Shown in pieces: positions 7,083 to 59,056 of a stretch of 64,000 bases of DNA. The translations under genes and the position numbers were made by a program. This stretch comes from an uncultured Caldithrix sp. (lineage in GTDB: Bacteria; Electryoneota; AABM5-125-24; Hatepunaeales; Hatepunaeaceae), in NCBI GenBank assembly GCA_964355675.1, contig CAYHEC010000014.1, positions 1,110 to 65,109 of the forward strand. Direction: 5' to 3'. The notes beneath the pieces are model-generated. The model saw nothing but the letters and a program-made list of their open reading frames with translations, ran no database searches and was not told the origin of the DNA. Position 1 is the first letter of the stretch, and each line of letters begins with the position of its first letter.

Positions 7083-7787
7083 TTCTATTCTATTTCCTTA
7101 AATTTGAATTTAATGATACCTTTTCTTCCGGTGAGGCTTTCTTATTAGCCTCAAGCCACCCAGCCGCTGGTTTTCCCATTAAAGGTCAGATCGTTCCCCA
7201 ACACGACGATATTCTTCGCAGTGTCAGCGACAATCTCTATATGGCTCGTGTCAAGGTTGAACTTTCGCGCCGCCAACCGATTGGCTTCAAGCATTGATTA
7301 CTGAATTCTCCGATTGTTTAATCTCCCCGCCCCAATTTATTGTATAAATGTCGCGAGGATACGTCTATCTTATTTTTTTTCGCTTTAGCGGGAAAGTTAT
7401 GGGTTCACGTCGTTTTCAACCTGTTAGTGTGAAAATGCCTATTGCGAACGTCAGCACTTCTACCTCTACCGCCCGACCGCCTCGCCTCGCCTTCGGCGAA
7501 ACGCCCGTTCTACCGACAATACCAATCTATTCCAAAATCTGCCCCAAGTCAATAGCAAACAGAAGCGGCGTCAGACAAGGACATCTGACGCCACTTAAAT
7601 TATTCAGTAGGGCAGGTCGGGACGCCCTGCCCTACTGAGATTGCTTGCTACACTCGCAGTGATCGATCTCATAAAATTACCAGTCCGATCACGAATCGAT
7701 CACAGAGTTTCTCATTGTAGCGCAACAAAATACGCCGCTCTGTGACTCAGTGATCGATTTTTGACCCCTCACTACTCTAAGTTCACC

Positions 7788-7813
7788 GCCCGGTCTTATC
7801 CGGGCTTTTTCTT
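7788..7813 (+). terminator. Rho-independent terminator with no upstream ORF
   Basis: GCCCGG-tcttat-CCGGGC followed by TTTTTCTTT. It lies 77 nt upstream of the valS start and downstream of an ORF-free structured region. Confidence 0.6.
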
Positions 7814-7889
7814 TGCTACCAAGCCCTGATTTCAGTATATTAACAGGTTAAGTCATTCCAAAATCCAAATTCCAAAATCCAAAACTATA

Positions 7890-10658: not shown

Positions 10659-12271
10659 TTATGCCAGAACTTCAAACAAATGTCCTCTACTACGGGGATA
10701 ATCTTGAGGTCTTGAGAGATCAAATTCCTAATGAATCAATTGATCTCATATACCTTGACCCTCCGTTCAATTCTAAGCAGTCATACAGTGTCCTATTCCG
10801 CGAATCGTCGGGAGCTGCAAGTGAAGCTCAAATCGAAGCATTCGAGGATACTTGGCAATGGACTATAGACGGCCAGGCACCCAAAGCCTACGACGCTATC
10901 ATGACCGGGCCGAGGCAGGACGTTGCGAGCTTGTTAGGCGCTATGGTGCAAGGACTTGGTCGCAATCAAGTTACATCCTATCTCTGCATGATGACGGTCA
11001 GACTGGTGGAACTGCACCGTGTTCTGAAAGCGACGGGGAGCCTTTACCTTCATTGTGATCCAACCGCTGGAGCCTATCTTCGAGTTATTCTCGACGCGAT
11101 TTTTGAGCCAGTCAACTTTCGCAACGAGATCATTTGGAAGCGAACATCGGCTCACAACGACCCAAGGAAATACGGAGCGAATATTGACGTAATCTGGTAT
11201 TACGTGAAGAGTAGTAAGAACACTTGGAATGATGTTTTCACTGAGCATCGTGAAGAGTATCTCAAGCGATTCACTCATAGAGACTCAGATGGTCGAGCAT
11301 GGCAAGACGGCCCGCTGACAGCAAAGGGACTGACTGGCGGAGGATATACCTATGAGTATAAAGGTATTAAAGGATTCTGGCGCTGTCCTCTGGCAACAAT
11401 GGAAAGGTATGACAAAGAAGGGCTCTTGCACATCACAAATAGGAATGGAATACGGATAAAGCGCTATCTTGATGAAACTGAAGGTGTGATACTTCAATCA
11501 CTCTGGACAGACATCCCACCTGTAAATTCACAAGCTAAGGAGCGATTGGGTTACAATACTCAAAAGCCTCAAGCCTTGCTCGAGAGAATAGTTTCAGTTT
11601 CATCCAATCCCGGTGATATCGTCCTTGATCCATTTTGCGGTTGTGGTACCGCACTTCACGCCGCCCACAAGCTTGACCGTAAATGGATAGGAATTGACGT
11701 AACTTATCTCGCAATCAACCTTATCGAACGAAGAATGCGTGATGCTTTTCCTGGCGTCCCGATTCATGTCGATGGTGCTCCAGCTGATACAGCCAGTGCT
11801 CACGATCTTGCTCGCAGAGACAAGTATCAATTTCAATGGTGGGCACTCGCCAAGATCGACGCTCAACCAGTATCAGGCAAGAAGAAAAAGGGTGCGGACA
11901 AGGGCAAAGACGGAGTTATTCCTGTTTTTATGGATGCTGAAATCAGTTATAGGAACGCGATAGTTTCCGTTAAGGGCGGCGCAGATCGCGACGTAAGTGA
12001 TATAAGGGACTTGAACGGAACTATGTTGAGAGAAAACACACCGTTTGGTGTTCTTATTACGTTGTTTCCGCCAACCAAACCAATGATAACTGAAGCGGCA
12101 TCGGCGGGACTCTATGAAAGTGAATTCTGGGGTAGAAAATTTCCTAGGATTCAAATTCTATCAGTCGAAGAGATCTTTCAAGGGAAACGTCCGAATCTTC
12201 CCAAAGGCAAATCGCCTTATGCAAAAGCTCCGGTTGAAAAAACGGTCAATGGAAATCTCAATTTAGATTGA
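10655..12271 (+). CDS. Beta-class DNA methyltransferase fused to a C-terminal Mrr-like PD-(D/E)xK domain
   Basis: 538 aa. Motif IV LDPPF (N-terminal) and motif I DPFCGCGTA. The C-terminal ~150 aa carry GADKGKDGVI...VSVKGG, resembling the Mrr catalytic core (D-G-x-D ... x-K). The start ATG overlaps the valS TGA (ATGA). Confidence 0.7.
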   Translation: MIMPELQTNVLYYGDNLEVLRDQIPNESIDLIYLDPPFNSKQSYSVLFRESSGAASEAQIEAFEDTWQWTIDGQAPKAYDAIMTGPRQDVASLLGAMVQGLGRNQVTSYLCMMTVRLVELHRVLKATGSLYLHCDPTAGAYLRVILDAIFEPVNFRNEIIWKRTSAHNDPRKYGANIDVIWYYVKSSKNTWNDVFTEHREEYLKRFTHRDSDGRAWQDGPLTAKGLTGGGYTYEYKGIKGFWRCPLATMERYDKEGLLHITNRNGIRIKRYLDETEGVILQSLWTDIPPVNSQAKERLGYNTQKPQALLERIVSVSSNPGDIVLDPFCGCGTALHAAHKLDRKWIGIDVTYLAINLIERRMRDAFPGVPIHVDGAPADTASAHDLARRDKYQFQWWALAKIDAQPVSGKKKKGADKGKDGVIPVFMDAEISYRNAIVSVKGGADRDVSDIRDLNGTMLRENTPFGVLITLFPPTKPMITEAASAGLYESEFWGRKFPRIQILSVEEIFQGKRPNLPKGKSPYAKAPVEKTVNGNLNLD

Positions 12272-12980: not shown

Positions 12981-13001
12981 GTGCGATACGTGCAAGAACG
13001 T

Positions 13002-13245
13002 GGGGGCTCGTAAACGGCCCCTACGCGACGAAGGGAGGGCATGTAAACGGGAGGGCTCGTAAACGGCCCCTACGCGACGAAGGGAGGGCATGTAAACGGG
13101 AGGGCATGTAAACGGAGGGCACGTAAACGGCCCCTACGCGACGAAGGGAGGGCATGTAAACGGGGGGCTCGTAAACGGGGGGCACGTAAACGGCCCCTAC
13201 GCGGGATGACGAATAGAGGGGGGGCTCGTAAACGGCCCCTACGCG
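13002..13245 (+). repeat. Tandem array of family-A repeats (GGGGCTCGTAAACGGCCCCTACGCG and truncated variants)
   Basis: About ten GTAAACGG cores in 244 bp. The full unit is a bulged hairpin GGGGC(T)CG-TAAA-CG-GCCCC followed by CTAC (a GTAG head on the other strand). Confidence 0.9.
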
Positions 13246-13269: not shown

Positions 13270-14652
13270 ATGGTACCAATGCCAACAAAACTATCACTTG
13301 CGTCAGCGCTTCTGCTAAGCTCCATTTTCCATTTTCCATCTTCCATTAAAGCCGAAGTCGCCGTTACCATTTACAACCAGAACCTCGCCCTCGTCCGCGA
13401 GGTGCGCCAGCTTGACTTCCCCAAGGGCGTCGGCCAACTCCGCTTCACCGACGTCGCGTCGGAGATTATCCCGACGTCAGTGCACTTCACCAGCGACAAA
13501 GCCGCACTCCTCGAGCAAAACTACGAGTACGACCTCGTGAGTTCGGACAAACTGCTCGAGAAATACATCGATCAACGGGTGGAGATTGTTTCGCTTGACG
13601 GCAAGAGCTTTTTCGGGTCGTTACTATCGTCGGGAGGGGATATTGTGCTAAGGTTAGATGGTGGGACACCCCCCCCTGCCCCCCCCGCAAGCGGGGGGGG
13701 AAAGTCTGGCGAATTGGTCTCGATTACCCGTTCGCAGGTTGCCAATGTCCGGTTCCCTGAGCTACCGGAAGGACTCATCACCCGCCCGACACTAGTCTGG
13801 CTGGTCGATGGCAAGGGCGGCAAGAGCGACGCTGACATCTCCTACCTGACGAGAGGAATCTCGTGGGAATCGGAGTATGTTGCCGTCTCGGACGTAAAGG
13901 ACGAAAACCTCTCACTGACCGGGTGGGTGAACATTACGAATAATTCCGGGGCGACGTACAAGGATGCGCGGTTGAAACTGATGGCAGGGGACGTGAATAT
14001 CGAACAGCCTCGAAGAAAATTCGCACGCGACGAAGTTCAAGAATTGTCAGGCGGATTTAATGCTGAATACGGTTTTCAAGAACAAGCGTTTTACGAGTAC
14101 CACCTCTATACCCTTCAGCGTCCCTCGACCATCGCCGACAAGCAGGTGAAGCAAGTGTCGCTGTTTCCGACGGCTTCAACGCCGGTGAAGAAGGAATTCC
14201 GACTCAAGGCGAACGAGGAAAAGGTTACAGTTGTCCTTGAGTTTGAAAACCGTGAGAAGGTCGGGCTGGGCATACCGCTTCCCAAGGGGAAGGTGCGGGT
14301 CTATAAGCAGGGTCCTGATGGCGGGCAGGAATTCATCGGCGAAGACAACATCGACCATACTCCCAAGGATGAAAAAGTCCGCATCACGACCGGTAAAGCG
14401 TTTGATATTGTTGGCGAGCGGAAATCGATCAACTACGAGCGCCAAGGCAAACAGCGTGAGAATGAGATTGTCGTCCGCAATCATAAGAAGGAGACCATCG
14501 AGGTTGTCATCGAAGACTCGTTCTGGGGGGATTGGAAATTTATCGAAGCGACCGACGGCTGGGAGAAGAAGAATGCCAGCCTCGTTGAGTGGAAAGTGAA
14601 GATCAAGCCGGACGGGGAGGCGAAGGTTAGGTATAAGGTTTATGTTAATTAA
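13270..14652 (+). CDS. Secreted DUF4139/DUF4140-like protein
   Basis: 460 aa with a signal peptide. VTIYNQNLALVRE...LEQNYEYDLVS resembles the DUF4139 family (from memory). The internal low-complexity patch GGTPPPAPPASGGGKSG is encoded by a hairpin repeat at 13681-13698. Confidence 0.55.
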   Translation: MVPMPTKLSLASALLLSSIFHFPSSIKAEVAVTIYNQNLALVREVRQLDFPKGVGQLRFTDVASEIIPTSVHFTSDKAALLEQNYEYDLVSSDKLLEKYIDQRVEIVSLDGKSFFGSLLSSGGDIVLRLDGGTPPPAPPASGGGKSGELVSITRSQVANVRFPELPEGLITRPTLVWLVDGKGGKSDADISYLTRGISWESEYVAVSDVKDENLSLTGWVNITNNSGATYKDARLKLMAGDVNIEQPRRKFARDEVQELSGGFNAEYGFQEQAFYEYHLYTLQRPSTIADKQVKQVSLFPTASTPVKKEFRLKANEEKVTVVLEFENREKVGLGIPLPKGKVRVYKQGPDGGQEFIGEDNIDHTPKDEKVRITTGKAFDIVGERKSINYERQGKQRENEIVVRNHKKETIEVVIEDSFWGDWKFIEATDGWEKKNASLVEWKVKIKPDGEAKVRYKVYVN

Positions 14653-14701
14653 TAATTAATAATTAATAATTAAGAAGTTAAAGTGAGTTGGAAGCTGTGA
14701 A

Positions 14702-16390
14702 ATGAAAGCGGCCAAATACGCGCTCGTAATCGTGCTGTGCTGGTTGTCGATGAGTGCTTGGGCGGAATGGGGGAGGGCGCCTAATGAAGCCATTCGAGCT
14801 CCCGCCGTGGGGCAGACGCTTTGCTCCGATGGTCAGGGCGGCGTCTGGTCGGGAAGCTTGGGATGGTTCTGCCATATCGACCGAAATGGTAATCCGACGT
14901 GGAATGCAGAGCCCTGTTTGCGCGGCTTTCAGAATTTGGGCAGGGATACGTCCAGCTACCCAGCAGACCAACGTACAGCGGTAAATGGCAGATTGGCGCT
15001 TGTCGGTATAAATGATTACATCTGGGGGATTTCGCGGAATGGTCCGCACCCTTGGGAATATATCATTGGCTATAGAGCGTGGGTTCAGCTTGTTTCTATC
15101 GATGGCGAACAGCTCTGGCGCAGAGGGGGAATACCATTGGACAGCGCCTTCGAATGGTCATACGTTTTCGGCGTTTATCCGGGGCCAACGGAGGGGACTT
15201 TTCTCGTTCATTGGGGTAAAGGATTTGAATGGACTGAGGGCAGTTCCGAACCAATGCTCCAACTCGTGAACAGCGATGGGGAGTTTCTTTGGGGTGATTT
15301 TGGAGTAAGACTCGACTGGGACAATTCGAACTCTTATTTCACCAAGTGGGAGGATGATTGCTTTATCGTCGCACAGAATGTCTGGCCGAATCCGACAATC
15401 GCAGTAGTGAAGTATGATTTGGAAGGTGAAGTAGTATGGGAACAGCGATTGCCGACGTTTGCCGAGGGGGTAACATTGTGCTCAATTAACGACATCGAGT
15501 CCGACCGTGCGGGAGGAGCGATCCTGACTTATTCGTTTTTGCGTGAGGTTATCATCGGGGGAAATCCAATCCAGTACGTAGGAGTCAATGTGTTGCGAAT
15601 ATCCGGCGGGGGGGACTCTCTTTGGACGAGGCAGGTATTCGAGCGGAGAAGAAATGGAGCAGAAGAGTTTTGGAGGACTGAACCGATTATTAACTATGGC
15701 GGGGAGGGAACGTATCTGATCGCCTGGAATGATCACGGGCCCAATGAAATGCAGACAGTAGCCCTTGATCTCGATGGTGAATTTCTTTGGGAATCGCCTG
15801 AGGTAATTGTCCTTTCTGCCGGGTATCAAAACCATTTGGCAGGCGTAGATTCGGAAGGTGGAATCTGTTATGTCTGGGCAGACTGGGAGGAGCGCGAGCG
15901 GCCCAGTACGCAAGTCTGGGGTCAGCGAATCAGCAATGAGGGCGAAAGGCTTTGGGGGGATAGAGGCATACCGCTTATCTACGATGACGGAGAAGCATTG
16001 AAAGCTGTTACTGAATGTAATGGTGGAATGATCGTGGCAAACTTGAGGCTGTTGCAAATGGTCAACCGCGACGGTGAAATCGGGGTCGTTTTGCCGGTCG
16101 GAGTGGGTGATGATTACAGTAACGATCCGGCGCTTCCGGGGGCGTTTAGTGTCGAACTCTACCCGAATCCGGTCAATTCTCACTTCAGGATAGTGTTCGA
16201 TGCGGCAGTTCCAAATCAGACATACAGCTACAGCCTCTTTGACGGGGCGGGGAGGTCGGTAGATTCAGGGGAGATTCTGAGTGTCGGTTCATTTGAAGGG
16301 GATCTGTCACAACTGGCGAGCGGGCAGTACTTCCTGAGGCTGAAATCGAAGAAGGCGTCGGTGACGAAAGGGTTCAGTCTGGTCAGGTGA
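14702..16390 (+). CDS. Secreted protein with T9SS C-terminal sorting domain
   Basis: 562 aa. Signal peptide MKAAKYALVIVLCWLSMSAWA. C-terminal LYPNPVNSHFRIVF...GQYFLRLKS...SLVR is typical of Por/T9SS CTDs. Confidence 0.7.
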   Translation: MKAAKYALVIVLCWLSMSAWAEWGRAPNEAIRAPAVGQTLCSDGQGGVWSGSLGWFCHIDRNGNPTWNAEPCLRGFQNLGRDTSSYPADQRTAVNGRLALVGINDYIWGISRNGPHPWEYIIGYRAWVQLVSIDGEQLWRRGGIPLDSAFEWSYVFGVYPGPTEGTFLVHWGKGFEWTEGSSEPMLQLVNSDGEFLWGDFGVRLDWDNSNSYFTKWEDDCFIVAQNVWPNPTIAVVKYDLEGEVVWEQRLPTFAEGVTLCSINDIESDRAGGAILTYSFLREVIIGGNPIQYVGVNVLRISGGGDSLWTRQVFERRRNGAEEFWRTEPIINYGGEGTYLIAWNDHGPNEMQTVALDLDGEFLWESPEVIVLSAGYQNHLAGVDSEGGICYVWADWEERERPSTQVWGQRISNEGERLWGDRGIPLIYDDGEALKAVTECNGGMIVANLRLLQMVNRDGEIGVVLPVGVGDDYSNDPALPGAFSVELYPNPVNSHFRIVFDAAVPNQTYSYSLFDGAGRSVDSGEILSVGSFEGDLSQLASGQYFLRLKSKKASVTKGFSLVR

Positions 16391-16412: not shown

Positions 16413-16681
16413 GGGGGCTCGTAAACCGGCCCCTACGCGGATGATTGGTTGGTGGTGCATGGCCGGGGCTCGTAAACGGCCCCTACGCGGGTGATTGGTT
16501 GGTGGTGCATGGCGGGGGCTCGTAAACGGACGGGGCTCGTAAACGGACGGGCTCGTAAACGGACGGGCTCGTAAACGGCCCCTACGCGGGTGGCACGTAG
16601 ACAGACGGGGCTCGTAAACGGCCCCTACGCGGATGATTGGTTGGTGGTGTATGGCCGGGGCTCGTAAACGGCCCCTACGCG
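16413..16681 (+). repeat. Second tandem array of family-A repeats
   Basis: About nine GGGGCTCGTAAACGG(CCCCTACGCG) units in the same orientation as the 13002-13245 array, interspersed with a repeated spacer GATGATTGGTTGGTGGTGCATGGCC. Confidence 0.9.
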
Positions 16682-16734: not shown

Positions 16735-18933
16735 ATGGCAAAATCTAACAACATAGGTGTCAACGGCAGAGCGTTGACAGCTTCCGGGGTCACTGCCACC
16801 CGCAGGGGGGTGGCAGAAGTTCCTGCATCTTCCGTCACCCCCCCGCGGGTGACGGACAAACTCAAATGGAACGACCCCGTCGCTCTGGTAAAAGGGCTTG
16901 GCGAACAGCGCGCCGAATTCCTTGTCTCGCAAGGATATGCCACCATCGGCGATTTGCTGATGCGTGCACCGCTTCGCTACATCGACCGCCGACAATCGCC
17001 ACCATTTTCCACGTTGACGACGCCTTCCGCTGGTGAGATCAGCGCCGTCGGCGTCATCGAAGCAGTCGGCGAGAAAGGGTTCGGTCGAAAAAGGCGACTG
17101 ATCTGCATTATTTCGGATGGGACGGGAATCGTGCAAGGGGTCTGGTTCAAGAATTATCATTTTTACAAGCCGGAATTGACTCCGGGTCGAAAGATTGCCT
17201 TGAGTGGCAGGATTACCATATTCGACGGTCCGCAGATCACTCACCCGAAGGTGACTTACCTTGACGGTGACCGGAATCTGCCTGGTGAAGCGTCGCTGGT
17301 GCCGGTCTATCCTTCGGGTGATGAGTGGGAGAAAGCCGGACTTTCCAAGCAAGTGTGGCCCCGATTGATCGCCAAAGTCATTAAAGATTGGGATGGAGAA
17401 GGTCCGTACCTGCCGGAGAATATCCGTGGTCTCTGCAAATACCCGACACTCCGCGATGCGGTTACTGCATTACATCAACCCAACGGGCTTGAGGATTTCG
17501 ACCGGGGTCTGGAGGCGCTGAAATTCACTGAGCTTTATCATCATCAATTGCTAATGGTTGTTTTGCGCAGGCGAAGAAGGCAGGGCGATGGAATTGTCAT
17601 CGGGTCGCAAGGCGAAAGATTTCCCTTATTCTTGAGACAATTACCGTTTGAACTCTCGCCGAGTCAACAGGAAGTGTTGGGTGAGATTAGTGAAGACTTC
17701 TGCTCGGGTCACCCCATGCATCGATTGTTGCAGGGGGAAGTCGGGTCGGGGAAGACTGTGGTCGCGCTGGCGGCGGCGGTTCATTCGGCTGATTCAGGCT
17801 ATCAGACTGCCATGATGGCTCCGACGGAAATACTTGCCCGGCAACACTATAAGAACGCAATCGAGTATTGCGAACCGGTCGGGATGAAAGCCGTCATGAT
17901 CAGCGGGGGGCGAGACGCCGACGAAAACCGACGAGCGCTTTTCGAGGCGTCGGTCGGTAAGGCTGATATTATTATCGGCACGCATGCCCTGTTTCAAGCT
18001 CGCGTCGAAATGCCTCGCCTCGGTTTGGCGGTGATCGACGAGCAACATCGGTTTGGAGTTCGGCAACGAGCGTTGCTGGTTGGCAAGGGAGTGCGGCCGC
18101 ACGTCCTGTTAATGTCGGCGACGCCTATTCCGAGGACGTTAGCGCTGGCTCATTACGGGGATCTTGAGTTGTCATTTCTGAAGCCTCCCCCCGGCATCGA
18201 AAGGCGCGTAAAAACACGTATCGTCAATGATTCGCGTCGTGATAAAGTATTCGGTTGGTTAAAGGAAGAATTGAAGAAGGGGCGTCAGGGATTTCTCGTT
18301 TTTCCAGTGATCGACGAAAGCGCAACCGGTCTTGAAGCCGCTGAAGCTCGTTATATTCCGTACAGTACGATCGACTTCAAAGGAATTCCGACGGCGCTTA
18401 TTCATGGGCGGATGCCGATCGATGAGCGGGTTAGGGTGATGGATTCGTTCCGTAGGGGGGATGTGAAGCTACTGATGACGACTTCGGTGATCGAAGTCGG
18501 AGTTGACGTGGCGGAAGCAACGATTATGGTTATCGAAAACGGCGAGCGGTTCGGGTTGTCCCAGCTTCATCAACTTCGTGGAAGAGTAGGAAGATCGGGC
18601 AGAACGGGAACGTGTGTAATTATCTCTTCGGAACGAGAGGGGCAGACAGGATTCGAACGAATCCGTAAACTCGAGACGACTTCTGACGGGTTAGAGCTTG
18701 CTGAGGAGGATCTGAGGCAAAGAGGGGCGGGTGACCCGCTTGGAGCGCGACAGAGTGGCTGGGTAAAATTCAAGCTTGCCGATCTGACAATGGATTACAA
18801 ATTATTAGAAAAGGCGCACCTTTCAGCGCTGGAAACGCTGGATACATGGCCAGACCTCGAACCCTTCCCAGAGATAAGAGCCAAATTGAAGCAGGAATAT
18901 CGCAATAGACCGAAGACGATGTTGGCGGGGTGA
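16735..18933 (+). CDS. recG: ATP-dependent DNA helicase RecG
   Basis: Walker A GEVGSGKT, DEQH box VIDEQHRFG, motif VI HQLRGRVGRSG. The first 38 codons are built from three hairpin repeats, so an alternative GTG start at 16849 is plausible. Confidence 0.93.
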   Translation: MAKSNNIGVNGRALTASGVTATRRGVAEVPASSVTPPRVTDKLKWNDPVALVKGLGEQRAEFLVSQGYATIGDLLMRAPLRYIDRRQSPPFSTLTTPSAGEISAVGVIEAVGEKGFGRKRRLICIISDGTGIVQGVWFKNYHFYKPELTPGRKIALSGRITIFDGPQITHPKVTYLDGDRNLPGEASLVPVYPSGDEWEKAGLSKQVWPRLIAKVIKDWDGEGPYLPENIRGLCKYPTLRDAVTALHQPNGLEDFDRGLEALKFTELYHHQLLMVVLRRRRRQGDGIVIGSQGERFPLFLRQLPFELSPSQQEVLGEISEDFCSGHPMHRLLQGEVGSGKTVVALAAAVHSADSGYQTAMMAPTEILARQHYKNAIEYCEPVGMKAVMISGGRDADENRRALFEASVGKADIIIGTHALFQARVEMPRLGLAVIDEQHRFGVRQRALLVGKGVRPHVLLMSATPIPRTLALAHYGDLELSFLKPPPGIERRVKTRIVNDSRRDKVFGWLKEELKKGRQGFLVFPVIDESATGLEAAEARYIPYSTIDFKGIPTALIHGRMPIDERVRVMDSFRRGDVKLLMTTSVIEVGVDVAEATIMVIENGERFGLSQLHQLRGRVGRSGRTGTCVIISSEREGQTGFERIRKLETTSDGLELAEEDLRQRGAGDPLGARQSGWVKFKLADLTMDYKLLEKAHLSALETLDTWPDLEPFPEIRAKLKQEYRNRPKTMLAG

Positions 18934-20098: not shown

Positions 20099-20347
20099 AT
20101 GATCGGTAGCGCAGCGATTTATCGCGCTCATATTGAGATTGGGACGATAGGCGCGATAAATCGCTGCGCTACCAGCACACCCATAGGCGCGATAAATCGC
20201 TGTGCTACCAGCACTCATAAGCGCGATAAATCGCTGCGCTACCAGCACTCATAGGCGCGATAAATCGTTGTGCTACCAGCACACCCATAGGCGCGATAAA
20301 TCGCTGTGCTACCAGCACCCATAGGCGCGATAAATCGCTGTGCTACC
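20099..20347. repeat. Family-E repeat array (GTAGCGCAGCGATTTATCGCGCC)
   Basis: One forward copy (ATGATCGGTAGCGCAGCGATTTATCGCGC), a 19-nt spacer, then six reverse copies (ATAGGCGCGATAAATCGCTGYGCTACCAGCAC) with a 34-37 bp period. Confidence 0.9.
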
Positions 20348-20445
20348 AGTCAAAAATGTCACAGAAATGTATGGATGCCGGCTTTCGCCGGTATGAGAGC
20401 ATTTCGGGTATATTTCACTTTCTCGGACAGTCTCGAATGTCAGGT

Positions 20446-27143: not shown

Positions 27144-27257
27144 TTCAGCCACGCTGAAGCTGTGAACTCAAACTGGTCGCATTCAGCCACGCTGAAGCTG
27201 TGAACTCAAACTGGTCGCATTCAGACACGCTGAAGCTGTGAACTCAAACTGGTCGCA
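27144..27257 (+). repeat. Three exact-period 38-bp tandem repeats
   Basis: The unit TTCAGCCACGCTGAAGCTGTGAACTCAAACTGGTCGCA occurs at 27144, 27182 and 27220. It contains the hairpin TTCAGC-cac-GCTGAA. Confidence 0.92.
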
Positions 27258-30717: not shown

Positions 30718-30978
30718 ATGGAGGGCGGACTTTCAGTCCGCTCTTGACAAGCGGGACGCTTATCCTACGCGAGAAAGGGCGGCTTGAAAAGCCGCCCTCC
30801 AAGAGCTTAGTTTTTGGTGTGTGCGTAGGTGCGGAGCATCCATGGAGTTAAAGTGGGGCGGATTGCAATCCGCCCCACTTACAGGCGCGACGGCGACAGG
30901 TCGAGACGCTTATCCTACTGACAAGCGGGACGCTTATCCTACGCGAGCGAGGGTGGCTTGAAAAGCCGCCCTCCAAGA
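30718..30978. repeat. Dense repeat block between tRNA-Gly and der
   Basis: D hairpin GGAGGGCGGACTTTCAGTCCGC (30720-30741). Composite F+D copies at 30746-30805 and 30920-30978. GGGGCGGATTgcAATCCGCCCC (30855-30876). Partial F copy at 30903-30918. Confidence 0.85.
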
Positions 30979-32332: not shown

Positions 32333-32497
32333 GTAGAACGGGCGGGACGCCCGTTGTTAGAGCCTGCTACCGACCCGCCGTGGTCGGCGGCATAATTCAG
32401 TGGTATTAACTATTTGGTGTCGGGTGCGGCGACCCGACACCGGCTTGAATCTTCTTACGTACGAGTCATAAGAAAACGGGCGGGACGCCCGTTCTAC
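32333..32497. repeat. Inverted pair of GTAG-AACGGGCGGGACGCCCGTT hairpins bracketing two other hairpins
   Basis: GTAGAACGGGCGGGACGCCCGTT at 32333-32355 with its reverse complement at 32475-32497. Between them lie GCTACCGACCCGCCGTGGTCGGCGGC (32366-32391) and GGTGTCGGGTGCGGCGACCCGACACC (32416-32441). Confidence 0.85.
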
Positions 32498-43194: not shown

Positions 43195-44572
43195 TGTACT
43201 CCTCAAACGATTTCGGCGCATCCACATGGTAGGAATCGGCGGTTCAGGGATGTCAGGAATTGCTGAAGTGTTGATCGGAACCGGTTTCCGAGTGACAGGG
43301 AGTGATCAGAGCGAATCGGATTTGACCCGTCGATTGCAGAATTTGGGGGCCGAAGTATATATCGGCCACAGCGCTAATTACGTTGGGGACGCCGAAGCGG
43401 TTGTTTATTCCAGCGCCATCAAACAGGATCATGTGGAGCTTGTAGCGGCGCGAATAAATAAGATACCGTTGATCCCCAGAGCCGAAATGCTGGCGGAATT
43501 GATGCGGATGAAAGCCGGAGTGGCAATCTCTGGGACTCACGGTAAAACGACGACAACATCACTGACTGGAGCCGTGTTGACGGCGGGGAACCTTGATCCG
43601 ACAGTGATTGTGGGTGGGAGGTTGAGACGGTTAGATGATGGCGTCAGGCGTGGCGCAGGCGAGATTTTGGTGGCAGAAGCAGATGAGTTTGATCAATCAT
43701 TTCTAAGGTTAGCTCCTACGTTGGTAGTGATTACCAATATCGATGAAGACCATATCGAGTGTTACGGCAGTTTTGAGGCGCTGGAAGAAGCCTTTATCAG
43801 TTTTGGAAATTCGGTACCGTTTTATGGAAGGGCTATCGTCTGTCTCGATGAGCCTTCCATTCAGAAAGTTTTACCTCGCTTCAATCGTTCAGTACTGACT
43901 TATGGGCTGTCGCCGCAGGCTGATGTGCGCGGCAGTGAAGTCTCCTTCAAGCGGATGGAGACAGTGTTCACAGTATCAGCTAACGGCGGAAAATTAGGTG
44001 AGATTGTCTTGCCCTTGCCGGGTCGTCACAACGTGTTGAATGCTCTCGCATCGATAGCAGTAGCGCTGGAATTAGGCGTTGCTTTTGAGAATATAAAATC
44101 GGCTCTCGAGCAATTCGAAGGAGTCCACCGTAGATTCGAGATTATGGGTGAAATCAACGGCGTCATGGTTGTAGATGATTTTGCCCATCATCCGGCGGAA
44201 ATCGCCGCTACTCTCGCCGCGGCTAAAGCGGGGTGGAATAGGCCTCTGGTAGCGATTTTTCAACCCCATCTGTTCAGCCGTACGCAGAGCCTTGCCAAGG
44301 AATTCGGGAGAGCTTTATTGGCGGCCGAAACGGCGATAATTCTTCCGATTTATCCAGCCCGGGAATCACCGATCGAAGGTGTTACCAATGAGTTGATTGT
44401 TGATGCGGCGCGGGAATTGGGGCACAAGCATGTTATCGGACTTGATGATCGAAGTAAAGTGATTGAGGTCGTTCGCGCGATCATCCAGCCCGGGGATATA
44501 TTACTCACGATCGGAGCTGGAGATGTTTATAAGCTCGCTCCGATGATAATCGAAGGGCTGTCTGGTAGGTAG
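43187..44572 (+). CDS. murC: UDP-N-acetylmuramate--L-alanine ligase
   Basis: GIGGSGMSGIAEVL and GTHGKTTTTS motifs. The TAG stop lies inside a GTAG repeat head. Confidence 0.96.
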   Translation: MLDVLLKRFRRIHMVGIGGSGMSGIAEVLIGTGFRVTGSDQSESDLTRRLQNLGAEVYIGHSANYVGDAEAVVYSSAIKQDHVELVAARINKIPLIPRAEMLAELMRMKAGVAISGTHGKTTTTSLTGAVLTAGNLDPTVIVGGRLRRLDDGVRRGAGEILVAEADEFDQSFLRLAPTLVVITNIDEDHIECYGSFEALEEAFISFGNSVPFYGRAIVCLDEPSIQKVLPRFNRSVLTYGLSPQADVRGSEVSFKRMETVFTVSANGGKLGEIVLPLPGRHNVLNALASIAVALELGVAFENIKSALEQFEGVHRRFEIMGEINGVMVVDDFAHHPAEIAATLAAAKAGWNRPLVAIFQPHLFSRTQSLAKEFGRALLAAETAIILPIYPARESPIEGVTNELIVDAARELGHKHVIGLDDRSKVIEVVRAIIQPGDILLTIGAGDVYKLAPMIIEGLSGR

Positions 44573-44573
44573 A

Positions 44574-44692
44574 GCCGATTCAAATCGGCGGTATTAACGA
44601 AGAAGAATTCAGCACTGCCGATTCAAATCGGTGGTACTAACGAAGAAGAATTCAGTACTGCCGATTTAAATCGGCAGTACTAACGAAGAAAA
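44574..44692 (+). repeat. 43-bp tandem repeat (2.8 copies) filling the murC-murB gap
   Basis: The unit GCCGATTCAAATCGGCGGTATTAACGAAGAAGAATTCAGCACT occurs at 44574, 44617 and 44660. The last copy forms a 28-nt perfect palindrome AGTACTGCCGATTTAAATCGGCAGTACT. Confidence 0.92.
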
Positions 44693-44694
44693 CA

Positions 44695-45705
44695 ATGTCA
44701 AATCTGCTCACGGCAAAGGATCTTGCCGACTATAAACTGATTGGCGAACTGAAACTTAGGATTGAGAAAGAGACCGATAGTCGTTGCCTGATCGATGAAT
44801 CGCTTGCCAAGCATACATCGTGGAGAGTCGGCGGTCCGGCAAGATTGTATGCCTACCCGTCATCGGGTATGGCGCTTGCAAATTTGATTCAATTTTGTAA
44901 CTTCGAAAGACTGGCATTTTTTACAATCGGATATGGAACGAACTTGCTGGTTTCAGACGATGGATTTGCGGGGTGCGTGATCGACCTTGCGGAAGGCGCC
45001 CGAAATATCTCAGTGGGGCGGACAACTGTCCGCCCTACCGCCCCGGACGAAGAACTGAGTGCTGGCGGGGGAGCCTGGCTGGGGGAGGTGGTGCGGATAG
45101 CGGCTGAACACGGGCTTAGCGGAATGGAAAGACTTGCCGGGATACCCGGCGGTGTTGGCGGGGGGATGTCGATGAACGCGGGGGCGTTTGGAATGTCGAT
45201 ATCAGATTGTCTGGTGGAGGCAACGGTAGTCGATAAGAACGGTGTGACAACGGTTATAAAGAAAGATGACGTTGGTTTTGGGTATCGTAGCGCACCAGGA
45301 ATTGCTGGAAAAACGGTTACAGAAACAATTTTCCACCTGAAAAAAGAGCACAAGAGCAGGATTATTCGCACAGTAGAATCGACAATTACTGATCGATTTC
45401 GCCGTAACGTGATGACTTTACCATCGGCGGGGAGCGTCTTCAAGAACCCAATCGGAGGCTTTTCCGCGAAAATGGTCGAAGCTGTAGGCGGAAAAGGGTT
45501 AAGGGAAGGGGGCGTCGAAGTATCGCAGTTGCACGGCAATTTTATCGTCAACACAGGCGCTGGGAATGCATCGGACATCGTGAAGCTCATTAATCGAATT
45601 AGGTCGATGGTTCGCGAACGCTTTGATGTATCGCTCGAGTTGGAAGTGAGAACGCTCGGCTTTGTCGGCGACATTCTCGAAGATTATAAAACCAAGGTTA
45701 TCTAA
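44695..45705 (+). CDS. murB: UDP-N-acetylenolpyruvoylglucosamine reductase
   Basis: FAD-binding PCMH-type N-terminus (GGPARLY, GYGTNLLV), GIPGGVGGGMSMNAGAFG, SAGSVFKNP. Carries an in-frame hairpin repeat at 45021-45048. Confidence 0.94.
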   Translation: MSNLLTAKDLADYKLIGELKLRIEKETDSRCLIDESLAKHTSWRVGGPARLYAYPSSGMALANLIQFCNFERLAFFTIGYGTNLLVSDDGFAGCVIDLAEGARNISVGRTTVRPTAPDEELSAGGGAWLGEVVRIAAEHGLSGMERLAGIPGGVGGGMSMNAGAFGMSISDCLVEATVVDKNGVTTVIKKDDVGFGYRSAPGIAGKTVTETIFHLKKEHKSRIIRTVESTITDRFRRNVMTLPSAGSVFKNPIGGFSAKMVEAVGGKGLREGGVEVSQLHGNFIVNTGAGNASDIVKLINRIRSMVRERFDVSLELEVRTLGFVGDILEDYKTKVI

Positions 45706-45758
45706 TTAACAAACAAGCACATAATCAGCAATTTAAGGCAAAACTGGCGCGTTGGATC

Positions 45759-46469
45759 GTGCTGGGTATGGTTGGCTGCGCTTTGTTGGGGGGCGTTGGG
45801 TTTGGGCTGTGGCAGGCTGGGTGGACGCTTTTAGAAAAGTCGAGCTGGAGTAACTTAGAGACCGTTCAGGTATTTGGTTTGAACCGACTTACTGAGAAGG
45901 AAATAATCACCGGATCACGGCTTAAAAGGAATATGAATATTATGCGGTTGTCGCTCGACCGCATAGCCGACGAGGTTGAGAAAAATCCGGGTGTAGCCAA
46001 AGCTCGCGTTATACGGCGGCTTCCTGGCAGATTGGTGATCAAAATTGAAGAACGAAAACCAGTCGCGGCAATTTATCGAAACAAGCTTTGGCTGGTTGAT
46101 GAAACTGGTGTGATTTTTTCAGCCACCGGCCCGAAGGAAGTGATCGATGTTCCTGTTCTGACTGGAGATTTTGATCTTGGGAAAAATGGATCGGCATCCA
46201 TACGACGTGCCGCAAAACTTGCTGGGACCATCCATGATGGTTTCCCAGTCGTATTCGATCATTTGGCAGAGATATCACTGGTATCAGGCCAATTTCAATT
46301 TCGTTTGCAGGATGGTGGTGCAAGAATTTTGTCTCCTGATCCAGCGAGTCCTGCGGCGTTGTCAAAACTCGAGCACTTTCTCCAGCAAAAAGGAAACGAA
46401 ATCCCTGCTGGTTGTGAATACGTTGACCTTCGCTATCCGGCGATGGTAATTACTGGAACAGAAGGTTAA
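45759..46469 (+). CDS. ftsQ: Cell division protein FtsQ (POTRA)
   Basis: TM helix, then POTRA domain VQVFGLNRLTEKEI...RRLPGRLVIKIEERKPVA. GTG start; the basic N-terminal tail may begin further upstream. Confidence 0.85.
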   Translation: MLGMVGCALLGGVGFGLWQAGWTLLEKSSWSNLETVQVFGLNRLTEKEIITGSRLKRNMNIMRLSLDRIADEVEKNPGVAKARVIRRLPGRLVIKIEERKPVAAIYRNKLWLVDETGVIFSATGPKEVIDVPVLTGDFDLGKNGSASIRRAAKLAGTIHDGFPVVFDHLAEISLVSGQFQFRLQDGGARILSPDPASPAALSKLEHFLQQKGNEIPAGCEYVDLRYPAMVITGTEG

Positions 46470-47820: not shown

Positions 47821-48101
47821 ATGATCGGTAGCGCGGCGATTTATCGCGCCATTCGTCCCAAACGGCATTACAGGCGCGATAAATCGCTGCGCTACCGCAA
47901 CCATCAGTTATAGGCGCGATAAATCGCTGCGCTACCGCAACCATCAGTTTTAGGCGCGATAATTCGCTGCGCTACCGCAACCATCAGTTATAGGCGCGAT
48001 AAATCGCTGCGCTACCGCAACCATCAGTTTTAGGCGCGATAATTCGCTGCGCTACCGCAACCATCAGTTACAGGCGCGATAAATCGCTGCGCTACCGCAA
48101 C
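47821..48101. repeat. Family-E repeat array between ftsA and ftsZ
   Basis: One forward copy ATGATCGGTAGCGCGGCGATTTATCGCGCC, a 20-nt spacer, then six reverse copies at an exact 40-bp period (47871 to 48071). They alternate two variants, giving an 80-bp higher-order repeat. Same architecture as 20099-20347. Confidence 0.93.
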
Positions 48102-48257
48102 TGTCAGTGTTGGTGTGACACAACACGAAGGTATTAGGGCAACAAGCCCGAAGTTTGACACCATGAGCGGCTCACATAGAGATTCGAGGCACAACTATCG
48201 ACAAGATAGCGTTATGAAAAATTGTCAAAATCATAAAATTTCTGGAGAAAGAAGGAA

Positions 48258-49574
48258 ATGAGCACTCCCCTCAACTTCGAATTCGCAGACGACAAACAGC
48301 TTACAGCTGTTATGAAAGTCGTTGGGGTCGGCGGAGCCGGCGGTAATGCAGTAGATCGGATGATTCAGTCAGGTTTGACTGGTGTTGAATTTATTTCGAT
48401 CAACACCGACGCGCAGTCGTTGGATCGGACATTAGCGCCCAGAAAACTGCAGATAGGCAGAACATTAACCAAAGGTCTTGGCGCGGGCGCTAACCCAACT
48501 ATTGGTCGCGAAGCGGCTGATCAGGACGTAGAACTGATCACAGAAGCGCTCCGAGGAGCTGACCTTGTTTTCATCTCAGCTGGAATGGGTGGAGGGACCG
48601 GGACTGGAGCGGCTCCGAAAGTGGCTGAAATTGCCCGTTCTCTCGGTGCCTTGACCATCGCAATTATCACCAAGCCATTCCATTTTGAAGGTAACAAGCG
48701 AATGGCAGTTGCCGACCAAGGCGTCAAATTATTGCGTGAACAGGTGGACACTTTGGTTGTTATTCCAAATCAGCGGCTCTTGAGTATCGTCGATGCCGGA
48801 ACCAGTTTCATGGAAGCGTTCAAACGTGCGGATTCTGTTTTGACAGACGCCACGCGCGGCATTTCCGATATTATTTCGATACCCGGCCTCATCAACGTTG
48901 ATTTTGCTGATGTGAGAACAATCATGCAAGGTTCAGGCGATGCGATGATGGGAATCGGCGTCGCCAGCGGAGAGGATCGCGGTAAGAAAGCGGCTTTGAT
49001 GGCTATTCACTCGCCCTTACTGGAAGATGTGAAGATCAACGGCGCGCTGAGTGTATTGGTTAATATAACCGGTTCGCCTGATATGACCCTCTTTGAGATA
49101 GATCAAGCGGCTTGGGAGGTCACCAATGCGGCTGGGGCTAATGCGAATGTAATTTTTGGCGCAGTAGTCGATAGTGCGGCGGGTGATGATATTCGCGTGA
49201 CTGTTATTGCTACCGGATTCAAGAGTCCATCCGTAGATCTGCCTCTGCTTCCAGATCCGAGTTATGATTTTAAAAAACAGCCTCGTCCCGACATCTCAAT
49301 CCCGACAATTACTCGTCGGGAGCAGGAAACAGCGCGATCAGCCGACCCATTCGCCGTTAAAACGAATGGATCGATCAACGGCAACGGCAACGGTAACGGA
49401 AACGGGCATATAAATGGCAATGGCCACTCTGATATCCTTGGAGACAGCGGCGGCCATTCAATTCCCATTAATCCGAATCGCATCCACCTTGAAGTCAATC
49501 TCGACGATGATCCTCCAGTAGATTTCGCAGTTCCGACATTCATGCGGCGAAACGGAAATCACGTCAAACAGTAG
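48258..49574 (+). CDS. ftsZ: Cell division protein FtsZ
   Basis: Tubulin signature [10 protein letters not shown], plus NTDAQ. The C-terminal linker contains an (Asn-Gly)n tract. Confidence 0.97.
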
Positions 49575-49615
49575 ATTAGCAGGGCGGATAGCCATCCACC
49601 CTACGATTCGCCTCG

Positions 49616-50576: not shown

Positions 50577-50712
50577 GTTTTCAGTACGACAGACATTCTT
50601 GTCTGTCACAAAATACAATACTTTAGACAATCTCTGTTTTCGGAGACAGACAGGAATGTCTGTCGTACTGAAAACAACTTAGTATTAGGACGGACAGGAG
50701 TGTCCGCCCTCC
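50577..50712. repeat. Inverted pair of family-H repeats plus one family-D hairpin
   Basis: GTTTTCAGTACGACAGACATTCTTGTCTGTC (50577-50607) with its reverse complement at 50645-50675 (one mismatch). GGACGGACAGGAGTGTCCGCCCTCC at 50688-50712. Confidence 0.88.
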
Positions 50713-55825: not shown

Positions 55826-56806
55826 GTGACCTTCGCCGTTCAAATAGAGAACTTCACTCGCTCCTACGGAGACGTTCAGGCAGCCAAAGAGTTGACTTTT
55901 TCGGTCAGGGAGGGCGAATTATTCGGCTTAATCGGCCCTGATGGTGCGGGTAAAACCACAACGATGCGAGCATTATGCGGGCTCATCACGCGGGACAGCG
56001 GCACAATGTCGATCTTCGGGATCGATCCGGAAGGATACCCTCGCAAAGTTCGTGAGTTAATCGGCTACATGCCTCAACGGTTCAGCCTCTATCCCGACCT
56101 GACCGTCGCTGAAAATTTGCGTTTCTTCGCCGATCTTTATCTTGTGCCGACGGATGAACGCCAACGCCGCGAGGAACGGCTCATGCGATTCTCCCGACTT
56201 GGTCCCTTTCGCGACCGACGAGCCTTGCAATTATCCGGCGGAATGAAGCAAAAGCTCGCCCTCTCCTGTACCCTGATTCATACTCCCAGACTGCTGATAC
56301 TTGACGAACCGACCACAGGCGTCGATCCGGTCAGCCGGCGGGAATTCTGGTCAATACTGAAAGAACTGTCTGCGGAGGGCATCTCAATTGTCGTTTCAAC
56401 GCCCTACATGGACGAGGCTCTTCTTTGCGACCGGACAGCGCTGATGCACAAAGGAAAAACGTTAGTGGTCGGGACTCCATCACAGATCACTGAGCTTTAT
56501 CCCCACATCCTCATCGAGGCAACGGCTGAGAATCTTCAGGATATCCGACAGAAGTTGATCGCCTCAGGAATTGACTCAAATCATTTACATCGATTTGGCG
56601 GCAGACTCCATATCGCCTGCAACAATCCCGGGGAGGCTGAACGAGTATCCACGTTAGTACGAGAGGCTGGCGGACAAGCGTCAAGGGCGTCGCCATCCAT
56701 CGAAGACACTTTTGTGGCAATAGTCGGTAAGCTTGATGATGAAAACCGCGCAGTGGGGCGGACAACTGTCCGCCCCACTGATGACCAAATGGCTTCCTTG
56801 CCGTAA
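55826..56806 (+). CDS. ABC transporter ATP-binding protein (YbhF-like half 1)
   Basis: GPDGAGKTT, LSGGMKQKL, LILDEPT. The C-terminal tail (..AVGRTTVRPTDDQMASLP) is encoded by repeat hairpins. Confidence 0.9.
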   Translation: MTFAVQIENFTRSYGDVQAAKELTFSVREGELFGLIGPDGAGKTTTMRALCGLITRDSGTMSIFGIDPEGYPRKVRELIGYMPQRFSLYPDLTVAENLRFFADLYLVPTDERQRREERLMRFSRLGPFRDRRALQLSGGMKQKLALSCTLIHTPRLLILDEPTTGVDPVSRREFWSILKELSAEGISIVVSTPYMDEALLCDRTALMHKGKTLVVGTPSQITELYPHILIEATAENLQDIRQKLIASGIDSNHLHRFGGRLHIACNNPGEAERVSTLVREAGGQASRASPSIEDTFVAIVGKLDDENRAVGRTTVRPTDDQMASLP

Positions 56807-56872
56807 GGTGTCCTCACCTTGCGGCGATATTGACTTTCACAATTACTTGTCGCAGGGTGAGGACACCCTGCG
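56801..56872. repeat. Inverted pair of family-J hairpins
   Basis: CCGTAAGGTGtcctCACCTTGCGG (56801-56824, contains the TAA stop) and CGCAGGGTGaggaCACCCTGCG (56851-56872). Related to the recG-downstream hairpin. Confidence 0.8.
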
Positions 56873-56893
56873 ACACCGAACAGCCTCCCATCA

Positions 56894-58840: not shown

Positions 58841-59020
58841 CCCGCCCAGCAAAGCTGTGCGGGCTACACACGCTTAGGAGTTTCGAATGCTGTGCGGGCT
58901 ACACGCCCTTAGGGATTTCGAAGCTGTGCGGGCTACACGCCCTTAGGGATTTCGAAGCTGTGCGGGTTACACACGCTTAGGCGTTTCGAATGCTGTGCGG
59001 GCTACACGCGCTTAGGCGTT
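58841..59020 (+). repeat. Five tandem family-G repeats between the two permease genes
   Basis: GCTGTGCGGGCTACACGC(C/G)CTTAGG(N)TTTCGAA units start at 58853, 58889, 58923, 58957 and 58992, with a 34-36 bp period. Confidence 0.9.
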
Positions 59021-59056
59021 TAGTCAGTAGCCTCGAGAAATAGTACGAAAAATTTT

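Follow-up and report, generated by a model that had tools for sequence, protein, structure and literature searches.

The window analysed here, a stretch of 64,000 nt (64 kb) from contig CAYHEC010000014.1, contains a 25-nt sequence that recurs in identical form inside two unrelated genes, murB and a gene for an ABC-transporter ATPase, and we consider it quite likely that this sequence is the core of a ~30-nt dispersed, GTAG-tagged repetitive extragenic palindrome (REP) that was copied into coding DNA. The evidence comes from the insertion of the element relative to orthologues, its identity at the DNA level, its location in a loop, its GTAG tags and the family of repeats around it. The 25-mer, CAGTGGGGCGGACAACTGTCCGCCC, has two exact copies on the + strand, at 45011-45035 and 56751-56775, both read in the identical frame as VGRTTVRPT, and 100 dinucleotide-preserving shuffles of the window yielded no chance match to it. 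A sequence-only reading of this DNA had reported the two copies and their translation as VGRTTVRP(T), which we recovered from both open reading frames (ORFs); its position for the ATPase copy was correct, while the murB copy, which it had given as 45021-45045, lies 10 nt further upstream. It had also attributed the shared peptide to a DNA-level palindrome rather than to selection on the protein, which is supported by the MurB and ATPase orthologues and by a third copy in murD of a sister organism, and had linked the element to a GTAG-headed repeat family, for which the tagged copies of the core and the tagged hairpins of the window speak. Given insertion at the level of the repeat, VGRTTVRPT would be no more than the passive translation of that repeat.

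The gene murB (44695..45705, + strand) encodes a UDP-N-acetylenolpyruvoylglucosamine reductase of 336 residues, as identified by Pfam, orthologues and an AlphaFold2 model, with a FAD_binding_4 domain at residues 50-185 and a MurB_C domain at 223-320. Homologues of the window protein number in the thousands, and in all 19 orthologues that were aligned (40-74% identity) the nine residues GRTTVRPTA are missing, the window protein having ..NISV[GRTTVRPTA]PDEELSAGGG versus ..EIVVD---------GESLTAGGG in the orthologues. The sequence-only reading had regarded conservation of VGRTTVRPT among MurB orthologues as the outcome that would speak against it, and none of the 19 possesses the segment. At the DNA level, comparison with the nearest syntenic relative (L001), whose dcw gene order is as in the window, reveals in murB a single clean gap of exactly 27 nt, and the solved MurB structure PDB 4pyt likewise shows a 9-residue gap at the insert position in the alignment. 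Judged from these alignments, the murB copy is a lineage-specific insertion with a net gain of 27 nt and nine extra residues. A structural model had been proposed earlier as a check; the AlphaFold2 model has a mean predicted local distance difference test score (pLDDT) of 88.7 and places the insert as coil between two β-strands: residues 108-119 lie between strands 105-107 and 120-124, with pLDDT values of 77-83 there versus 91-92 in the flanking segments. Given this arrangement, the insert is predicted to lengthen a β-hairpin turn inside the FAD-binding domain.

The empty murB site of L001 reads GTT-GTA-GAT and hence includes a GTAG, which we considered as a possible target preference and took to be a coincidence, given that the empty sites in murD lack GTAG; in other MurB orthologues this position encodes V-N or V-K. 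Neither 45011-45040 nor 56751-56780 shows direct repeats at its flanks. As to other variation in and around this gene, one MurB orthologue (P0024) has a 10-residue insert of its own, NARKPGDVHK, elsewhere in the protein between ..FKNP and FAAK (alignment columns 264-273). The 122-nt spacer between murC and murB is filled in the window by three tandem 43-nt hairpin units, AGTACTGCCGATTtaAATCGGCAGTACT (44574-44702), unlike in L001, where murC and murB are adjacent (9999/10001). The named MurB orthologues come from Calditrichota and KSB1 bacteria, placing the host organism, as far as these sequence affinities indicate, as probably a relative of Calditrichota.

A first alternative is that a repeat read was collapsed into unrelated genes by an error of assembly or binning, which the sequence-only reading had itself raised. 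The source data are short-read metagenome assemblies of low coverage (~6x), and contigs of the window organism frequently break near repeats. Against this, the exact 336-residue MurB is found on contigs of two further independent assemblies, ERZ4201063 and ERZ4201064, which are identical to the window across the element and differ from it by 0 and 3 mismatches over ~12 kb. Furthermore, the murB insert keeps the reading frame with both flanks aligning to orthologues, and an analogous clean in-frame insert is present in L124, a contig of a different project. With the same insert-bearing murB recovered in both independent assemblies, we set mis-assembly aside as extremely improbable.

The second copy lies near the end of the gene for ABC-transporter ATPase 1 (55826..56806, + strand; 326 residues, with the Pfam ABC_tran domain at residues 21-164), the element ending 26 nt short of the end of the ORF. 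About 18 residues at the C-terminus, AVGRTTVRPTDDQMASLP, are repeat-derived. The nearest orthologues (P0121-P0123; 68-72% identity) are 292-311 residues long and have 10-12 residues past the conserved EDTFVA, versus 24 in the window protein, so that ATPase 1 stops about 12-15 residues sooner in the relatives. In the orthologous loci, where ATPase 1 has 310-311 residues, its stop overlaps the start of ATPase 2, e.g. CCATGAGC in L003, whereas in the window 87 nt separate the two genes and three hairpin repeats fill 56751-56875. The shorter orthologues and their stop/start overlap uphold the view of the earlier reading that this copy forms a non-homologous C-terminal extension. That reading had further put the stop codon inside another hairpin, at 56801-56824, and we find the TAA (56804-56806) in the 5' arm of a second hairpin, TGCCGTAAGGTG-tcct-CACCTTGCGGCG (56799..56826, + strand), which belongs to a different family (D15). 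The third hairpin, TGTCGCAGGGTG-agga-CACCCTGCGACA (56848..56875, + strand), is of the same family as the second and is situated in the new spacer before ATPase 2. In another frame, the segment 56871..56897 (+ strand) encodes ..RTASHQ*, with its TGA overlapping the ATG of ATPase 2 (56894), and probably represents a relic of the ancestral C-terminus of ATPase 1. The comparison with the orthologous loci suggests that a block of ~125 nt comprising the three REPs entered the last few codons of ATPase 1 and shifted the frame, such that the TAA in the second hairpin would now terminate the protein.

A scan of metagenome contigs for the 20-nt core, GGGCGGACAACTGTCCGCCC, retrieved 45 stretches, one of which revealed a further coding copy. 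L124 carries the dcw cluster of a sister organism, the MurD of which is 81% identical to that of the window. Its murD reads ..GGWIE[PVGRTTVRPTDT]PSEFVF.. versus ..GGWIERDEFVF.. in both the window and L001, a net gain of 36 nt in frame. The element at this site, CAGTAGGGCGGACAACTGTCCGCCCTACCG, is bounded by GTAG/CTAC at both sides and shares 29 of its 30 positions with the murB copy, while the surrounding genes have diverged. On the evidence of these sequences, the L124 murD copy appears to be an independent third coding insertion, for which the window and L001 murD genes supply the empty sites.

About 15 of the 45 core stretches have a directly abutting GTAG and/or CTAC, and four have the flank ...CCCTACCG seen in the murB copy. 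The flank ..GTCCGCCCTACCG, as in L124 and murB, recurs in L141, where it is intergenic, and in L166, both of which come from the metagenome in which the ATPase relative L003 is likewise found. The other stretches include hairpins of terminator-like type with an A-run and a T-run, and three that are flanked by GACG...CGTC. Because the same core is also found in such plain terminator-like hairpins of other contigs, the 20-nt core alone is not diagnostic of the element; the tags are. At ~1203-1222 of L135 a CTAC-tagged core is enclosed by a 555-codon ORF that has an NPPF motif and resembles a type I restriction-modification methylase; the core is read there as QGGQLSAP, i.e. in a frame other than that of the murB, ATPase and murD copies. 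In L147, L153 and L154 the core is spanned by long ORFs, which were also considered as coding insertions and rejected, as they look like spurious antisense ORFs in DNA of 63-65% G+C.

The complete element in murB, CAGTGGGGCGGACAACTGTCCGCCCTACCG (45011..45040, + strand), is a palindrome of ~30 nt encoding (S)VGRTTVRPT(A) at MurB residues ~106-116. Its stem spans 45016-45035, and past position 25 it departs from the ATPase copy and runs on as ..CCCTACCG, hence the CTAC at 45035-45038, which is GTAG on the - strand; the CTAC ending of this copy noted previously is confirmed by the TAC next to the 25-mer. The ATPase-tail copy, CAGTGGGGCGGACAACTGTCCGCCCCACTG (56751..56780, + strand), which encodes (A)VGRTTVRPT(D), is a perfect 14+2+14 palindrome with the heads GTGG and CCAC. 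Folded as DNA, the murB copy reaches -11.2 kcal/mol (z -5.6) and the ATPase copy -16.6 kcal/mol (z -7.2), within a range for the 30-mers as single-stranded DNA of -11 to -17 kcal/mol and z of -5.6 to -7.3; over the hairpins folded, z runs from -5.6 to -7.7. The stems measure 9-14 bp and the loops 2-4 nt, which is the short stable palindrome expected of GTAG-tagged REPs. The tag is likewise present, as CCCTAC in the murB copy, as GTAG...CTAC on both sides in the L124 murD copy and as the GTGG variant in the ATPase copy. The consensus of the repeat is approximately CAGTRGGGCGGAC-AACT-GTCCGCCCYACYG, and the family motif is CAGTRGGGCGGACNNNNGTCCGCCCYACYG. Within the 64 kb this family (D17) has two identical and two diverged copies, the latter being an intergenic perfect 30-nt palindrome, AAGTGGGGCGGATTGCAATCCGCCCCACTT (30851..30880, no strand assigned), and TAGCAGGGCGGATAGCCATCCACCCTAC (49577..49604, + strand), directly past ftsZ. 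The stop codon TAG of ftsZ (49572-49574) comes from a CAGTAG motif immediately upstream of this last member, which agrees with the published remark that the ends of GTAG REPs often provide stop codons.

The element is set within a population of related hairpins. Counting perfect stems of >=8 bp with loops of 2-9 nt, we found 48 hairpins in the window versus 6.3 (maximum 12) in block shuffles, and at least 14 of them have GTA[GC] or [GC]TAC at the base of the stem versus 0.35 expected; the tagged population is ~8-fold above the shuffles. Long ORFs (>=150 residues) leave ~19% of the window uncovered, and 32 of the 48 hairpins fall within this fraction, making the population mostly extragenic, a bias that holds for the hairpins as a population, the element under study being known in the window from its two coding copies. 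The stems vary and the head (C)AGTA[GC] recurs, as in TCAGTAGGGCAGG..CCTGCCCTACTGA at 7604 and CAGTACGACAGACA.. at 50588. Tagged hairpins also form inverted pairs with a spacer, at 32337/32475 and 50588/50645, that resemble REPINs (REP doublets forming hairpins). In L001 and L124, hairpin families of the window have members elsewhere in the intergenic DNA of the dcw cluster, and since the families are common to both at different positions, the repertoire is shared and the insertion sites are not.

With respect to mechanism, we propose that a REP-associated tyrosine transposase (RAYT) of the Y1/HUH type would spread the element through single-stranded DNA, as has been proposed for GTAG REPs. 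Copies would land in coding DNA, namely in the murB turn and, jointly with two hairpins of another family, in the final codons of ATPase 1, where the block would replace the C-terminus and break the ancestral stop/start overlap with ATPase 2. The element is G+C-rich and free of stops in the frame used, with the GTAG head closing one frame through its TAG and leaving the other two open; inserts of a multiple of three in surface loops, or at the C-terminus, may then be tolerated and persist. Given a stop-free frame and selection for tolerated sites, the in-frame state would need no special mechanism, and the inserts are presumably neutral for protein function. The insertion itself is seen directly in the alignments, and the RAYT step is suggested by family resemblance.

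This resemblance includes a sister REP. A degenerate pattern, GTGGGGCGGAN{4,8}TCCGCCCYAC, was scanned over genome contigs; among the matches listed were generic G+C-rich hairpins of Actinomycetota, Acidobacteriota and others, the window genome was not recovered, and L011, a metagenome-assembled genome (MAG) labelled Bacteroidetes, emerged as a by-product. L011 has a Y1_Tnp gene (PF01797; 37.5 bits versus a cut-off of 23) at 7181-7702 on the - strand, amid four GTAGGGCGGATTCATGAATCCGCCCTAC-type REPs lying on both sides of it (REPtron 7101-7940). The REP GTAGGGCGGATTCATGAATCCGCCCTAC has the same 10-nt arms as the window element (GTAGGGCGGA...TCCGCCCTAC) with a different loop. A protein search with the RAYT-like protein of L011 gave two matches, the sole other homologue being labelled RayT.

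Several points weigh against the proposed origin and spread of the element. No Y1_Tnp domain was detected among ten small ORFs of the window scanned against Pfam, and a tblastn search with ten published RAYT or TIRYT (terminal inverted repeat-associated tyrosine transposase) sequences gave no match to the window; over other loci the same search gave only L011 and a weak IS200-type match in L151. The search with the L011 protein provided no link of any RAYT to the window organism. The ATPase copy has GTGG instead of GTAG at both ends, and the core appears as A-run ... T-run hairpins of terminator type in other metagenome contigs. The copy counts come from 64 kb plus a few contigs, and the organisms that supply the nearest empty sites have proteins of only 70-81% identity, which obscures the exact boundaries, the target sites and any duplications.

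These searches bear on an alternative in which the hairpins spread, or were homogenised, without a RAYT, through template switches at replication forks that create or perfect palindromes, through gene conversion among the hairpins or by an unrelated enzyme; CGTC-type REPs, for example, are not known to have a dedicated transposase. Its appeal lies in the lack of a RAYT in the window searches, or of one tied to the window organism, in the many different stems that have only a short GTAG/GTAC tag in common, and in the unequal net lengths of the inserts (murB 27 nt, murD 36 nt); parts of the literature (PMC8266576) also describe the mechanisms of REP dissemination as poorly understood. That 25-29 nt are identical between unlinked loci and between two species points instead to the copying of a defined element rather than to palindromes arising de novo, and both the GTAG tags and the REP-flanked Y1 gene of the sister REP are consistent with the RAYT model. 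All considered, we regard spread without a RAYT as unlikely.

We also weighed whether the intragenic copies of this REP are kept for a function, be it as an mRNA processing or stability site in the dcw and ABC operons, as a binding site of gyrase or IHF type, or through a role of the VGRTTVRPT loop. All three coding copies (murB, ATPase and L124 murD) have the same frame and loop orientation, two of the three host genes act in peptidoglycan synthesis and belong to the dcw cluster, the element is more conserved between the two species than the adjacent coding DNA, and extragenic REPs have published roles in mRNA stabilisation and protein binding (PMC3733652). However, three cases sharing one of three frames amount to a coincidence of ~1 in 9, which is too weak for a claim of frame preference, one frame is closed by the TAG of the GTAG head, and the tagged core in L135 is read in a different frame in another organism. 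Furthermore, the sister species have their insertions in different genes and all other orthologues lack them, a loop and a tail, the sites occupied in the host proteins, are where neutral inserts survive, the copies lack the T-run of terminators, and neither site matches an Rfam family. We find retention for function very unlikely on this evidence. An intrinsic terminator was considered separately and rejected, as no T-run follows either window copy and a terminator scan of 44500-45800 does not flag the murB copy; the Rfam search gave no family at either 25-mer site. Slim, too, is the chance that the copies represent a REP subfamily adapted to or targeted at coding DNA, with a preferred frame and a near-invariant sequence that serves the element or the host. 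If true, such a subfamily would have repeatedly entered essential dcw genes (murB and the sister murD), giving a benign Val-Gly-Arg-Thr-Thr-Val-Arg-Pro-Thr loop, and the intragenic hairpin or its peptide could act, for example, as a handle for a RAYT or as a point of mRNA-level control in the cell-division operon.

Other repeats of the window may be recorded here. The first inverted pair (32337-32493), GTAG-AACGGGCG..CGCCCGTT ... AACGGGCG..CGCCCGTT-CTAC, is located upstream of mraZ and is kept at the same place in the sister contig L124 (574-633), and the second (50588-50664) consists of CAGTAC-GACAGACA.. hairpins. A hairpin family of the form CTGCCACCC-(a/g)caggg-GGGTGGCAG is present at 8560-8583, in valS, and at 16793-16816, at the 5' end of the recG ORF; the former corresponds to ValRS residues ~224-232 (..AATHRGVAE..) and the latter is read as ..TATRRGVAE.., a situation that can be likened to that of murB and the ATPase. 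The hairpins of the recG ORF (16793, as well as 16758 and 16831) are possibly upstream of the actual recG start. At 10094-10121, past ..EEIWQ, valS also contains a perfect 28-nt palindrome, AGTAGCGTTGACAATTGTCAACGCTACT, with GTAG/CTAC heads, whose translation, QVALTIVNAT, follows the GTA-G.. frame that the murB element also has; both this hairpin and that at 8560-8583, which were considered as candidate insertions, fall in loops of variable length among orthologues. A DNA methyltransferase gene (N6_N4_Mtase; 538 residues; 10655-12271) begins 4 nt before the end of valS. The CTAC-tagged sequence GGGGCTCGTAAACGGCCCCTACGCG is found in two clusters of 6-7 copies each, at 12984-13245 and 16413-16681, bracketing a two-gene block (13270-16390) that encodes a DUF4139 protein and one that bears a Por_Secre_tail sorting domain of the type IX secretion system (T9SS). 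Between ftsA and ftsZ there are approximately eight tandem 40-nt units (47828-48147), and L167 and L168, from independent assemblies, each stop a short way ahead of this array. Further tandem arrays consist of 8-nt CACTTGCC units (2739-2858), 34-36-nt units ending in GCTACCAGCAC (20147-20349), three 38-nt units (27144-27257) and 34-nt units containing GCTGTGCGGGCTACAC (58852-59021).

REPs have been divided into the GTAG and CGTC super-families (Di Nocera, De Gregorio, Rocco 2013, BMC Genomics 14:522, PMC3733652), and in the published model GTAG REPs are non-autonomous, being handled as single-stranded DNA by RAYTs whose genes are REP-flanked (PMC3733652, PMC2817692, PMC3116915). The window element and its relatives share with GTAG REPs the G+C-rich stem-loop of 20-40 nt with a GTAG tag, the presence of several families per genome, mainly intergenic near the 3' ends of ORFs, the inverted pairs and the stop codon TAG supplied by GTAG. 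A 2013 catalogue already contains intragenic GTAG REPs by which known proteins gain 7-30 residues, among the encoded peptides being VGPALAAG in Opitutus terrae and VGRASARH.. in Thioalkalivibrio uvrA, along with a repeat dimer in murB of Rickettsia conorii (PMC3733652). As in the present case, these units lie wholly in known genes, and VGPALAAG and VGRASARH also start with Val-Gly from GTA-GGN. The sister REP flanking a Y1 transposase gene in L011 is a further likeness to REP/RAYT systems, from which the window genome differs in that the searches made identified no cognate RAYT. Unlike published GTAG REPs, the element has a probable Calditrichota relative as host, its tags are part of a longer CAGTAG...CTACTG palindrome and its ATPase copy has GTGG heads; unlike in earlier cases, there are matched filled and empty sites in sister species. 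In the Calditrichota literature the only REP-like motif that we found is AACCGTTgaAACGGTT of C. abyssi, with AACCGTT..AACGGTT, which is unrelated to the window element (PMC5317091).

Other classes of small repeats resemble the element in part. The Rickettsia palindromic elements (RPEs) are the classic in-frame palindromic inserts (Ogata et al. 2000, via PMC10969869 and PMC3733652). They share with our case the palindromic repeats in frame in unrelated housekeeping genes, including R. conorii murB, and the conserved extra peptides tolerated at surfaces, and differ from the ~30-nt element with its 9-12 residues in being classically ~100-150 bp long, encoding 30-50 residues and being restricted to Rickettsia, with unrelated sequences. 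The present host is a free-living or environmental organism, unlike the obligate intracellular Rickettsia. With net inserts of 27 and 36 nt (9 and 12 residues) and a Calditrichota-like host, we do not count the element among the RPEs, and the likeness is one of behaviour only. [quoted passage not shown] Bacterial MITEs (ERIC, Correia/NEMIS, Nezha, Chunjie) are similarly short and non-autonomous, and insert between co-transcribed genes or occasionally in frame. Unlike them, the element is a single 30-nt hairpin with no detectable duplication; the whole of it is about as long as a terminal inverted repeat of 15-30 bp, and in the absence of a flanking direct repeat it was not assigned to this class. 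The small dispersed repeats (SDRs) of cyanobacteria are hairpin-forming sequences of <30 nt that make clean insertions in otherwise conserved sequence, much like the window element. Their families are reportedly of 21-27 nt (Elhai et al. 2008). To our knowledge they have no GTAG tag, and their sequences and hosts differ from those of the window element.

Given that intragenic GTAG REPs have already been described elsewhere in bacteria, the case reveals neither an element nor a mechanism of a new kind. What it adds is a new lineage in which GTAG REPs are intragenic, and it presents a natural experiment, in which one 30-nt REP stands in frame in three genes, two of them for essential peptidoglycan enzymes, in two sister lineages of a barely studied phylum. 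In the annotation of MAGs, such repeats probably give rise to spurious "lineage-specific inserts" and to odd C-termini. The filled and empty sites also offer material for the study of how REPs move and of which protein sites tolerate them.

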